Below, one piece after another: positions 16,209 through 62,787 of a stretch of DNA of 64,000 nucleotides; position 1 is the first letter of the stretch; every line of letters begins with the position of its first letter. The position numbers and the translations under genes were made by a program. The stretch spans positions 768,001 to 832,000 of the forward strand of contig CP066684.1 in NCBI GenBank assembly GCA_016432325.1, read 5' to 3'. Under the pieces are notes generated by a model. It was not told the origin of the DNA. It searched no databases and saw only the letters and a program-made list of their open reading frames with translations. Source of the stretch: Candidatus Aenigmatarchaeota archaeon (GTDB lineage Archaea; Aenigmatarchaeota; Aenigmatarchaeia; PWEA01; JACQIF01).

Positions 16209-16450
16209 TGGAGCCCCGGGTGGGATTCGCTTTTGCGAGGTAGCGTAAACCACGGGTGCCGATTGGACCCACGTGGTGATCGACGCAAAGGCTTTTGCAC
16301 CCACGACCTGCGCATCTCTCCCGAGCATCTCGCTTCATGTTTTGCTAGAGCTTTGCTGCGAGCTCCAGCACGGCACGGGCGAGCAGGGAAGGCGGAAGCC
16401 TCCCGAAAGCTCTTACGAGTGCGCCGCTCTGCTAGCTGAGCCACCGAGGC
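16209..16450 (-). tRNA. tRNA-Thr(CGT) with two introns (anticodon ~16316-16413, 98 nt; T-loop ~16226-16293, 68 nt)
   Basis: GCCTCGG/CCGGGGC acceptor, T73-CCA, GCGCA-CTCGTAA-TGCGC, GTGGG/CCCAC; removing both introns gives 76 nt. Confidence 0.85.
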
Positions 16451-16613
16451 ATCGCTTCGGAACGTTTTTGCCCATGTACGAAAACGTCGGTTTTCGACAT
16501 GTCGGCAACCGATGTTGCCGTACACACTTTTTCTAAAAGTGTGGCTGACGCACCGAGGCGTACGCAGACGTAACGCCGGAAGGTATAAAAAGGCTAGAGT
16601 GCGTATAACTGCC

Positions 16614-16892
16614 ATGGGATTGTTCGACAGAACCCGCAGCGAAACCAATACGATTGCCGCACTCAAGGATATTGCGGAATCCATAGACGGCAACGGCAGC
16701 CACGACGTGCCCAAACCGGTTGTCATGAACTTGAAAATCATCAAGACGATGCTACTGGAAGTCGCCGACAGTATTCGCTTTGGTAGTATGGATCAAAAAG
16801 AGCGCGCCAAACTCCAGGATGTGGTCCGGTCCTTAGAAAGAGAGATTAAGGATATCCAACTGATCCAAGAGAAAATCAGGCGCGTCCTGTAG
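16614..16892 (+). CDS. Hypothetical helical protein
   Basis: ATG start downstream of a TATA-like element. Confidence 0.5.
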   Translation: MGLFDRTRSETNTIAALKDIAESIDGNGSHDVPKPVVMNLKIIKTMLLEVADSIRFGSMDQKERAKLQDVVRSLEREIKDIQLIQEKIRRVL

Positions 16893-16910
16893 GATGTTCT
16901 GGTGTTTTCC

Positions 16911-17225
16911 ATGGCAATGTCAAAGGAAGGCCGGCCGTTGGTGGAAACCGAAACGGTCCCCGCTAGAATGTGCGATCTTAAAGGCGGAATTATAGACCAG
17001 TCTACGGAGAAAAAAGTGATGGTGCTCGTCGGAAGGGTGGACTCAAACGACAAATGGCGCGGCACCATATGCGTGGAGGACAGCGAATACAGCGAGGAGC
17101 TGAGCAGAAAGGCGCCCAAAGATACAGATTTCCGTACGCTAAAGGCATATCTGCATAAAAGCGGTCACGTGATACTAATCAGGCGACGCGATTTGGACGA
17201 TTATGCCAGGAAACATCCAAAATAG
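16911..17225 (+). CDS. Hypothetical protein
   Basis: ORF in tandem with neighbours. Confidence 0.5.
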   Translation: MAMSKEGRPLVETETVPARMCDLKGGIIDQSTEKKVMVLVGRVDSNDKWRGTICVEDSEYSEELSRKAPKDTDFRTLKAYLHKSGHVILIRRRDLDDYARKHPK

Positions 17226-17290
17226 ACAGATGAGAAAATCGTTCCGCGAGCGCACCAAACCTATTTATCCGTGCACCGCAAGCTCTGGTT

Positions 17291-17740
17291 ATGAAACCCA
17301 GACCGATAGCCGCAGTTTCCATCACAGAAGCCATGGCTGTGAAGAAAGAAGCCGTGGAGAACTCGCTCAAGACGCTTCTGGAGGCCATAAAACAGGAGAA
17401 AGGAATCGTCGTCAAAAGCGCCACCTTCGCCGAGGCCCTGCGCGTGGAGAAGCCCAGAAAGAACATTCCGGAAGCGTACACGCAGGTTATGGAGCTTGAA
17501 ATCGAGTTTGAGAACCTCAAGAGGATGCTCAACTACACCATGAAATACGGCCCGTCCGCCCTCGAAATAATGGAGCCGAAGGAGATTAACGTGAACCTCA
17601 ACGAGGCGCAGGAGATGGCCAACGAGATAATGGCGTTCATCCACCGCTATGCGGCGGCGGGAATAGGCGGCGTGGTTATCGTGCCAACGAAGAAGATAGA
17701 GCAGCCGAAACAGGACGCGCAGAAAACGACTACAGGCTGA
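17291..17740 (+). CDS. Conserved hypothetical archaeal protein
   Basis: KYGPSALEIMEP motif; host-like codon usage. Confidence 0.6.
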   Translation: MKPRPIAAVSITEAMAVKKEAVENSLKTLLEAIKQEKGIVVKSATFAEALRVEKPRKNIPEAYTQVMELEIEFENLKRMLNYTMKYGPSALEIMEPKEINVNLNEAQEMANEIMAFIHRYAAAGIGGVVIVPTKKIEQPKQDAQKTTTG

Positions 17741-17771
17741 CTGTTTCATCGTGTCGCCGCAAGGGCGACTG

Positions 17772-17851
17772 GTGAAACAACAGTTTCACGCGATCGTTTC
17801 ACTCCGTGGGCGCGCGACAAGCATATATTCATCGTTCCACAATCGTTTCAC
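17772..17851. promoter_or_regulatory. GTTTCAC operator-like array, including the palindrome GTGAAAC-N4-GTTTCAC
   Basis: Palindrome 17772-17789; further half-sites at 17796 and 17845; same motif at 18998. Confidence 0.45.
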
Positions 17852-17865
17852 CGGCAGGTGTGTCC

Positions 17866-61308: not shown

Positions 61309-61427
61309 AGGCTACGTGCGCAGGAGGGGTTATTAAAGCTTTCTGCGCGAGGCGCGGAAAGTTAAGAACGGATGTTTTTGAGCTTTCTGACTGACGTGCG
61401 TTGTGGCCAGAGGTTCAAAGTCATTGT

Positions 61428-61613
61428 TGGTGGGCCCGCTGTGATTTTCTCATACGCCGGAAGGCGTACTTTCCCTAAAGGCTTTTGGACGGAAATGTCC
61501 AAAAGGCTTTGAACACAGGTTTCCAACATGTTAGCTCGTTCTTCATCTTCGCTTCAGAAGCTTAGAGACGAGTCCCCAAGCTGGAGTCCTAAACCAAGCT
61601 AGACTACGGGCCC
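61428..61613 (-). tRNA. tRNA-Pro(GGG) with two introns (37/38, 45 nt; T-loop, ~63 nt)
   Basis: GGGCCCG/CGGGCCC-A-CCA; CCAGC-TTGGGG|T-GTTGG with canonical BHB; CTGTG/CACAG. Confidence 0.85.
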
Positions 61614-61728
61614 AGTGGGAATAACGCCACAGACCAACCATTTATACTTGTTTACCAGAACGTGCCTTCGAGGGCAGGTAGTCGTAGCACGCTTTTGCGA
61701 AAAGCGTGGGCAAAACGACGCCACCTAT

Positions 61729-61920
61729 GGGCAGGTAGTCTAGACAGCACACTTTAAAAAAAGTGTGGGCAAAACACAAATTGCCAGCTGGGAAAACGGA
61801 ATGACGTCACGTTCGCAACGTGAAGGTCGCGGGTTCAAACCGGGCTTTCTTCCAAAGAAAGCACGGGTGCAAAGAAGGTAAGCCTTCCGGCACTCAACGG
61901 AAATCCCGCCCTGTCCACCA
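61729..61920 (+). tRNA. tRNA-Ala(CGC) with D-loop (~52 nt) and T-loop (~64 nt) introns
   Basis: G3:U70 acceptor GGGCAGG/CCTGTCC; TCACG-TTCGCAA-CGTGA. Confidence 0.87.
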
Positions 61921-61952
61921 TTTTTATACTTTACACTCTGTACGTTCCTTGC

Positions 61953-62062
61953 GGACCCGTAGCTCAGGTGGTTAGAGCGCTGCTCTGATAGTTGGACATC
62001 GATACGTTGATGTCCTTTTGGTCAGGCAGAGGCCCGGAGTTCAAATCTCCGCGGGTCCACCA
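61953..62062 (+). tRNA. tRNA-Ile(GAT) with a ~33-nt anticodon-loop intron
   Basis: GGACCCG/CGGGTCC-A-CCA; CTGCT-CTGATA[...]A-GGCAG. Confidence 0.9.
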
Positions 62063-62192
62063 CAAATTTCAAGGCAAGGATTTTCGAACAAAGTTCGAAA
62101 ACTTCGAACCGCTGTTCGAAGACAGTTGAAACGCGAAGCGTTTCTTGGGGTCCACCAAAACCTTTTATACAGGGAACGTCGATAAACTCACC

Positions 62193-62528
62193 ATGGCACT
62201 GCCCGCTATCGTCTGGCTCCTCGTTACGGCAGTAAACCTCATAGTTGAAGTGCTGGCCGCCGTCATTGCGTTCAATATGAGCCGCAAGGTCAAAGGCGAC
62301 CTTCTGCGTAAGATGTTTATAACCTTCGGAATTATCATACTTCTCAACACGGCGGCTGACTTCAGCACATACCTTGTCTTTCAGGTGCCGTCAATCCAAG
62401 CAGCCGCCGCCGCGGCGAGCTCACCCCACAGCGATTTTGTCGTTGTCTTCAGGCTACTGAGCAACCTCGCACTCGTCTATATGATGACGCGTTTCGAGGA
62501 GTTCAAGAAGCAGTTCACATTCGGTTGA
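62193..62528 (+). CDS. Small three-TM membrane protein
   Basis: TTTATA box upstream; hydrophobic helices. Confidence 0.55.
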   Translation: MALPAIVWLLVTAVNLIVEVLAAVIAFNMSRKVKGDLLRKMFITFGIIILLNTAADFSTYLVFQVPSIQAAAAAASSPHSDFVVVFRLLSNLALVYMMTRFEEFKKQFTFG

Positions 62529-62561
62529 GCTTTATATCTCTTATTCTCAAACTGGACTTGC

Positions 62562-62787
62562 GCCTGGGTGGCTCAGTGGTAGCGCCTTTTTGCTGCGGCA
62601 AAAACCCGCGGGAATGCACGGAACAACGTTCCGGCACATCGGGAGCGCACTCCCGAATGAAATCCGCGCCGCGCGCCTAAAGAGCACCAGACTCATAATC
62701 TGGGGGTCGTGAGTTCGAAGCCTTACTGCCCGAGAGGGCGGTAAGTGAAACGCGCAGCGTTTCAGGAGTTACTCACCCCAGGCACCA
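62562..62787 (+). tRNA. Elongator tRNA-Met(CAT) with D-loop (~100 nt) and T-loop (~51 nt) introns
   Basis: GCCTGGG/CCCAGGC-A-CCA; CCAGA-CTCATAA-TCTGG; GTGAG/CTCAC. Confidence 0.85.

Follow-up and report, generated by a model that had tools for sequence, protein, structure and literature searches.

Short hairpin repeats in tRNA introns, gene ends and spacers of an aenigmatarchaeal genome suggest modules that copy into new sites

In a 64,000-nt stretch of the genome of a Candidatus Aenigmatarchaeota archaeon (assembly GCA_016432325.1, contig CP066684.1, positions 768,001 to 832,000; hereafter the window), tRNA genes are interrupted and bordered by short hairpin repeats. Analysis of these hairpin modules in the window and across the host genome leads us to conclude, with a probability of about 0.65, that they spread to new sites by copying at the level of DNA, surviving only where they are harmless. 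We observe several module families, the sites they occupy, their nesting, and sites that are filled or empty by comparison with a congener. Four tolerated outcomes are seen: a bulge-helix tRNA intron; a duplication of about 9–21 bp that covers a gene end, a start codon or a TATA box; an in-frame insert of about 16 codons; and nesting in an older module. A first-pass annotation of the window had proposed a single non-autonomous hairpin element that repeatedly targets tRNA genes and its own earlier copies, producing composite introns. Non-autonomous modules, repeated insertion, nesting and composite introns are all supported by our data. The single tRNA-targeting element is not: there are several families, 83 of 147 loci lie in spacers away from tRNA genes, and some copies sit in frame within open reading frames (ORFs).

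The host genome is a single contig of 874,869 bp with 56% G+C, derived from groundwater metagenomes. It is DPANN-like, and the nearest named relatives of its S12 protein include Aenigmatarchaeota metagenome-assembled genomes. The congener used for comparison (G001) is 73% complete and shares about 62–65% protein identity with the host. The modules themselves are non-coding hairpin repeats of about 40–65 bp, with loops varying from 3 to 9 nt, and fall into several families: a T-tract hairpin with a mirrored A-tract, a twin hairpin (TGYACG..CGTRCA), a TTCGAA twin hairpin and a TGAAAC hairpin. The twin-hairpin module has a 6-bp terminal repeat; the other families have none. Thirteen patterns gave 147 merged loci, comprising the 83 non-tRNA spacers, 40 introns, 16 tRNA flanks and 8 ORFs (chance matches for most of these 8); reversed-genome controls gave 0–2 matches. 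Module density was 8.2 per kb in introns, 2.8 in tRNA flanks, 0.97 in other spacers and 0.01 in ORFs. Perfect hairpins followed the same order (7.3, 2.8 and 1.1 per kb, against a null of 0.08–0.27), and in ORFs their density, 0.11 per kb, equaled the null.

The families differ in where they sit. The TGAAAC hairpin had been cited as a tRNA module on account of TGAAACGCG(A/C)AGCGTTTC, which indeed occurs after tRNA-Ile (62127–62144) and in the Met T-loop intron (62746–62763), but 48 of the 65 copies of its core lie in non-tRNA spacers, as do 12 of the 20 copies of the twin hairpin. A promoter family and a start-codon family have no copies at tRNAs. By contrast, 10/10, 10/10, 5/5 and 17/23 copies of the T-tract subfamilies are in tRNA introns, so that confinement to tRNA or rRNA loci, which does not hold overall, is largely true of these subfamilies only. 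The T-tract subfamily is strongly tRNA-biased, and the remaining families are generalists that nest inside it. One T-tract pattern, CAC(A/G)CTTT..AAAG(T/C)GTG, was confirmed upstream of tRNA-Thr (16523–16543), upstream of tRNA-Ala (61688–61708) and in the Ala D-loop intron (61748–61767), with 8 copies genome-wide and 0 in the reversed genome. In 13 of 14 introns the T-tract head lies on the sense strand no more than 6 nt from the 5′ splice site; in one it is antisense. T-tract copies also occur at protein-gene ends, in both orientations. In the two copies with an asymmetric tract, the A-tract 3′ of the hairpin mirrors the hairpin's purine strand, a pattern whose symmetry would suit an intramolecular triplex.

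A structure-aware parse identified 45 tRNA genes, of which only 2 are intron-free, and about 97 introns. Seventy-eight of these were delimited by script (29 in the T loop, 27 in the anticodon loop and 22 in the D loop), and some 19 further introns, in eight tRNA genes, by eye. Intron length has a median of 50 and a maximum of 143 nt. Removing the introns restores canonical tRNAs of 71–86 nt from 37 genes; the 8 others were read by eye. A 4-bp junction helix with at least 3 of 4 pairs was found at the fixed 37/38 register in 25 of 27 introns (about 6 expected) and at the fixed 59/60 register in 25 of 29 (about 6 expected), or 50 of 56 for the two together, against about 12. The exceptions fit 58/59, 57/58 or 33/34, and two anticodon-loop introns require the 33/34 register. 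For D-loop introns the score of 21/22 came from an optimized register and is no independent test. The inner helix is frequently missing, giving the relaxed hBH form. On this evidence the introns appear genuine, and their splicing is predicted; they look like ordinary members of the bulge-helix-bulge (BHB) class, with transposition of the Thermoproteales type.

The host encodes one RtcB and one EndA (186 aa, L050:1474–2034, minus strand), the latter closest to the homotetrameric enzyme of M. jannaschii. This EndA carries a six-residue basic insert in its C-terminal part, ahead of the conserved His region. Heavy tRNA disruption has been associated with a loop of this kind in DPANN alpha4 EndA (PMC5829648), and the host insert may correspond to that L3 loop. 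An EndA of single-subunit type would have to process dozens (about 65) of non-canonical introns.

Intron sequences are shared between different tRNAs. In an all-against-all comparison (at least 80% identity across half of the length), 30 of 78 introns (38%) fell into seven families common to different tRNAs, far beyond the 0.1 obtained with shuffled sequences. One family, which includes the Ala T-loop intron, has 9 members; another, with the Met D-loop intron, has 10 and occurs at D-loop, anticodon-loop and T-loop positions. Families also cross species: the host Arg T-loop intron matches the congener Ala T-loop intron at 30 of 31 nt. We considered whether one intron family represents a transposon end and rejected this, as its 16-mer occurs only in tRNA introns and only in this genus (371 genomes). 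Shorter likenesses reported in the first-pass annotation were found at the positions it gave or a few bases away. As it had stated, CCTTTTTGC..GCAAAAAC opens both the Arg and the Met D-loop introns. The cited motifs exceed chance by a wide margin (0–2 in reversed-genome controls), except for two that carry less weight. The 12-mer GCAAAAACGTTC is common to the Thr leader and the Arg D-loop intron, but it belongs to the tail in Thr and to the second strand of the hairpin in Arg, and one further copy lies within an ORF; AAAGCCTT does lie at the 5′ junction of T-loop introns, but has 50 genome matches, and its first A's are exon bases 58–59.

Outside introns, modules sit in cassettes bounded by duplicated gene ends. 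Eighteen tRNA ends, seven 5′ and eleven 3′, are duplicated around a cassette within about 130 bp; in control windows the frequency is 0–0.3%. One more 3′ match, of 8 nt at a distance of 160 bp, was set aside as probably due to chance. The three such cassettes first reported in the window are all present. Upstream of tRNA-Thr(CGU), a minus-strand cassette (16451–16543) consists of the T-tract hairpin (16523–16543), a nested twin hairpin (16475–16524) and a tail, and has on its outer side a dead copy, with 2 mismatches, of the tRNA's first 16 nt (16544–16559, minus strand). On the plus strand, a 12-nt dead duplicate of the tRNA-Ala 5′ end (61672–61683) and a T-tract hairpin cassette together span 61672–61728. 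The Ile 3′ cassette (62063–62157, plus strand) contains a spacer, a nested TTCGAA twin hairpin (62083–62120), the TGAAAC hairpin noted above and a dead duplicate of the last 10 nt (62148–62157). The Thr duplicate stops at position 16, which is where the Ala D-loop intron starts; intron and terminal cassette therefore look like two surviving insertion outcomes, and we infer that both result from insertion close to a gene end.

The duplicated end had been described at tRNA genes; the same scar is found at start codons and TATA boxes. At protein genes a copy of the start region comes first and the TGAAAC hairpin second; then come a short inverted repeat of that first copy, which pairs with it, a spacer, and the working Shine-Dalgarno and ATG. 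The S12 start cassette (34630–34708, plus strand) is an example, with a Shine-Dalgarno and ATG copy, the TGAAAC hairpin at 34652–34667, an inverted copy, a spacer, and a second Shine-Dalgarno and ATG; TATA boxes are duplicated in like manner. Direct repeats of at least 9 bp spanning the TGAAAC core occur at 23% of sites versus 2.4% of controls, and inverted copies of at least 6 bp at 28% versus 2.9%. Many TGAAAC cores lie 25–50 nt ahead of a start codon. In cassettes read by eye, the head points to the outer, dead copy, and on the gene side the copy is intact, with the module on the sense strand at 5′ ends and antisense at 3′ ends. The Thr-leader composite recurs at two non-tRNA gene starts (genome 703833 and 862605). 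Duplications measure 0–2 bp at nested sites and 9–21 bp at gene ends and so have no fixed length.

Some modules are tolerated within coding sequence. In-frame inserts of 16–18 codons occur in host PolB, uL5 and Lhr, and the encoded peptides are dissimilar. The congener has in-frame inserts in PolB (at a different site), uL30 and others, and the PolB inserts of the two genomes (L145, L087) are independent, about 35 codons apart. We rejected the idea that cassettes outside tRNA genes are introns of mRNA, since they have a duplicated start instead of a splice junction and the ORF copies keep frame.

Comparison with the congener provides the evidence for movement. Among orthologous spacers bearing a host module, 23 of 25 have no module in the congener, and the median spacer is 118 nt in the host versus 46 nt. 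One such protein-gene spacer, with a TGAAAC core at 17773–17788 of the window, is 125 nt here and 15 nt in the congener. The congener also has filled sites that are empty in the host. About ten orthologous tRNA genes differ in the introns they carry: in the congener, tRNA-Ile has three introns and no 3′ cassette, tRNA-Met an additional intron at 37/38, and tRNA-Thr(UGU) two introns versus none in the host, while Gly(CCC) and Leu(GAG) lack the one intron that each has in the host. Moreover, the congener Thr(UGU) gene is present as two alleles with the same flanks, differing by two nested hairpin inserts; these may be strains binned together. Because orthologous sites are empty or differently filled, and because the two alleles differ by nested inserts, the elements are mobile. 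Farther afield, the TGAAAC core has 36 exact matches in the host and 9 in each of two genomes that belong to another family of the order, against 0–4 elsewhere. The layout with a duplicated start recurs in this pair, one of which also carries the core within its 16S rRNA gene. The twin-hairpin pattern gave 0 matches in viral contigs.

How might the modules spread? In the scheme we favor, the T-tract subfamily would found introns, its head placed at the 5′ splice site on the sense strand, and a short locus-specific tail would provide the pairing that EndA needs. EndA and RtcB would then excise the whole composite, so that introns would be safe harbors and could keep growing. Copying itself, the weakest step, would begin when a hairpin causes a stall or a break in the DNA and the repair machinery draws on another copy, guided by short stretches of homology in the flanks. 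Copying by host repair would explain why a subfamily spreads within a single class of site (between tRNAs, between TATA boxes or between starts), and why duplications range from 0 to about 21 bp with no transposase; perfect stems with changing loops also fit hairpin-triggered repair with template switching. We give this repair route a little less than an even chance. Copying by an enzyme supplied in trans, from a virus or a lost element, is a serious but lesser possibility, and copying through RNA is unlikely. A more specific idea, which we put forward tentatively and regard as doubtful, is that the T-tract hairpin and its mirrored third strand act as an enzyme-free seeder of introns: a triplex folded in single-stranded DNA would be copied by host repair into tRNA loops and become an intron if its tail pairs with the exon, and the same event with a duplicated gene end would give terminal cassettes. 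If true, this would be a general transposase-independent route to archaeal tRNA intron gain.

No mobilizer was found among the enzyme families searched. The host genome had no match to PF01609 (DDE_Tnp_1), PF02371 (IS110), PF01797 (Y1 TnpA) or PF07282 (TnpB), other transposase families not being searched; it also had no Cas1 and no reverse transcriptase (RT), the latter also by tblastn with the congener's RT. Y1 TnpA was absent from all 22 genomes examined (the host and 21 relatives of the order). The window had been said to contain no identifiable mobilizing enzyme. A tyrosine integrase does adjoin tRNA-Thr (14962–16149, minus strand), but it belongs to a 7.5-kb island at tRNA-Thr(CGU) (8730–16209), bounded on the far side by a 14-bp att repeat of the tRNA 3′ end (8730–8743, minus strand); four tested cargo ORFs of the island had no Pfam matches. 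A second island, of 13 kb, lies at tRNA-Gly(GCC) (L162), also with a tyrosine integrase and a 14-bp att repeat. We rejected the two integrases as a general mobilizer: each has its own island, with the att repeat 7.5 and 13 kb away, and they leave duplications at 5′ ends or start codons unexplained. Tyrosine integrases may nevertheless be involved in some 3′ cassettes. In the congener there is a frameshifted RT resembling those of diversity-generating retroelements (DGRs) (L122:5346–7551), with a pair resembling template and variable repeats, and it adjoins a gene located two genes from endA in the host. An RT has therefore passed through the genus.

These data bear on several other explanations. 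A dedicated mini-element that recognizes tRNA genes and inserts into their loops and ends, all other copies being strays, would account for the T-tract subfamilies in introns, the head at the 5′ splice site and the 18 duplicated tRNA ends. We consider it improbable, given that over half of the module loci are outside tRNA loci, that start codons and TATA boxes bear the duplicated-end scar, and that the exact Thr-leader composite stands at two protein-gene starts and T-tract copies at protein-gene ends in either orientation. Alternatively, EndA and RtcB might religate excised introns into other RNAs, to be fixed by a borrowed RT, with the other DNA copies as by-products. The intron families that span tRNAs and positions, as in Thermoproteales (PMC4090602), the sense orientation of modules in introns and the frameshifted DGR-like RT of the congener would all fit; but no RT was found in the host, the duplications are DNA scars, and neither TATA-box cassettes nor antisense cassettes at tRNA 3′ ends are insertions of transcripts, which together make this account quite unlikely.

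That the modules are selected regulatory signals which arose at tRNAs and gene starts, for example guide RNAs or palindromes bound by proteins, is suggested by the placement of many TGAAAC cores before start codons, repeated in the other-family relatives. We find this very improbable: the orthologous sites of the congener are empty, loop lengths vary, copies lie in frame in ORFs and nested in one another, and tRNA is the only Rfam family in the window. The chance that the repeats are an artefact of assembly or amplification is practically negligible. Hairpins can arise from foldback chimeras, but removing the introns restores exact tRNAs, the inserts in ORFs preserve the reading frame, a second genome contains the same families, and contigs from four groundwater runs span the loci without difference. 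Indeed, the Pro-Ala-Ile-Met tRNA cluster shows 0 differing letters against the Logan contigs from these runs, and the assembly is therefore sound; the runs are possibly the genome's own source, so that this is a check on assembly and not on biology.

Several observations weigh against our conclusion that generalist modules copy at the DNA level and persist where harmless. The module patterns were composed after inspection of the sequence, and the gene caller assigns a few N-terminal in-frame inserts (uL5) to spacers. The T-tract subfamilies are nearly restricted to tRNA genes, and introns are 8 times richer in modules per kb than other spacers, a result that active targeting would also give. 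No mobilizing enzyme was identified, so the copying step is inferred. The congener is so distant that for most insertions the boundaries cannot be placed with single-base precision, and there was no empty allele in the host's own population among the contigs of the four runs over 20 kb. A joint skipping the Met D-loop intron was rejected as an empty allele; its short side is 20 letters, its depth is low, and it most likely comes from another organism's tRNA. A metagenome search for closer relatives returned one short contig, on which the tRNA cluster was absent.

The tRNA genes of the window illustrate the range of arrangements. tRNA-Thr(CGU) (16209–16450, minus strand) has introns of 98 nt at 37/38 (16316–16413) and 68 nt in the T loop (16226–16293), each with a 3/4 junction helix, and yields a 73-nt mature tRNA. 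tRNA-Arg(GCG) (34144–34379, minus strand) has three, in the D loop (34281–34359, with a T-tract head), at 37/38 (34235–34261) and in the T loop (34161–34212), and tRNA-Pro(GGG) (61428–61613, minus strand) two, at 37/38 (61529–61573) and in the T loop (61445–61507, with a T-tract head). On the plus strand, tRNA-Ala(CGC) (61729–61920) has D-loop (61745–61795) and T-loop (61840–61903) introns; tRNA-Ile(GAU) (61953–62062) a single one at 37/38 (61991–62023); and tRNA-Met(CAU) (62562–62787) a 98-nt D-loop intron (62583–62680, with a nested twin hairpin near 62615–62660) and a T-loop intron (62720–62770). tRNA-Thr(UGU) (63659–63734, plus strand) is intron-free and has an atypical T loop, with GGCAGAG replacing TTCRA. 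A free twin-hairpin module lies in a protein-gene spacer at 55264–55314. ARAGORN detected 0 of the 8 tRNA genes of the window, and the introns show why tRNA callers fail on such genomes.

Outside the window, a tRNA with anticodon UAU (Ile; genome 698587–698774, minus strand) has about three introns and a 3′ cassette; this anticodon is unusual among archaea. Anticodon GUU (Asn) was read in two dissimilar tRNA genes (genome 730027–730135 and 851596–851835). The host 16S rRNA gene (L163:1096–3273) is 2178 nt long and contains a 180-aa LAGLIDADG ORF, that is, an rRNA intron with a homing endonuclease, and the host 23S exceeds the length of the model by about 200 nt. In G019, from another family of the same order, a TGAAAC hairpin lies in the 16S rRNA gene at a conserved ATTAGATAC site (L157:400–480).

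Overall, a source of these intron sequences can be seen outside tRNA genes, and filled and empty sites together with duplicated gene ends record their insertion. A gene-dense genome without a recognizable transposase still accumulates selfish DNA, and this offers a testable route for the origin of archaeal tRNA introns. Intron transposition is known from Thermoproteales, where near-identical introns occur in unrelated tRNAs at several positions (Fujishima et al. 2010, reviewed in PMC4090602); introns in cross-tRNA families make up 28% in Thermoproteales and 1.5% in Asgard archaea (bioRxiv 10.64898/2026.10.13.758758), under a clustering rule that differs from the one behind our 38%. The host introns share the near-identity across tRNAs and positions and the bulge-helix junctions. 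Unlike those of Thermoproteales, they are long composites of modules that also live outside tRNA genes, and they are accompanied by duplicated gene ends, nesting and in-frame ORF copies.

Several palindromic repeats invite comparison, among them the Rickettsia palindromic elements (RPEs) and the similar MJRE of Methanocaldococcus jannaschii. Like RPEs (PMC10969869, PMC3184786), the host modules are palindromic repeats of a small genome that occupy spacers and also lie in frame within essential genes unrelated to one another; RPEs, however, are about 105–150 bp with a conserved peptide, whereas the host modules measure 45–55 bp, encode 16–18 codons of unrelated peptide, nest in one another and give rise to spliceable introns. 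Likewise, mitochondrial GC clusters and double-hairpin elements (PMC4478555) are palindromes of about 40–50 bp that vary in presence between relatives, merge into composites and have no enzyme of their own, but GC42 makes a fixed 2-bp AG target duplication, and the host modules make none to about 21 bp, covering functional gene ends. Repetitive extragenic palindromic (REP) sequences and bacterial interspersed mosaic elements (BIMEs) with their REP-associated tyrosine transposases (RAYTs), and the IS200/IS605-derived palindrome-associated transposable elements (PATEs), are also short extragenic hairpins in mosaic arrays; here there is no Y1 transposase in the host or 21 relatives, and no TnpB in the host. 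Among the host copies listed, the GTAG or CGTC tetranucleotide of the REP hairpin foot is not evident. Elements that integrate at tRNAs, through tyrosine integrase att sites or as casposons (PMC5137440), leave a similar duplication of about 14–15 bp at the tRNA 3′ end, but our cassettes are 50–110 bp, occur also at 5′ ends and protein-gene starts, and come without a Cas1 found in the host. Miniature inverted-repeat transposable elements differ in that the host duplication has no fixed length and the searched transposase families are absent.

Our literature search, with subscription journals mostly outside its coverage, found no description of such repeats in DPANN, nor of the link whereby one set of modules both forms tRNA introns and, at other sites, leaves gene ends in duplicate. 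The modules behave like RPEs, REPs or mitochondrial GC clusters, yet fail the defining tests of each family. They are best described as palindromic DNA of the RPE, REP and GC-cluster kind that feeds intron transposition.

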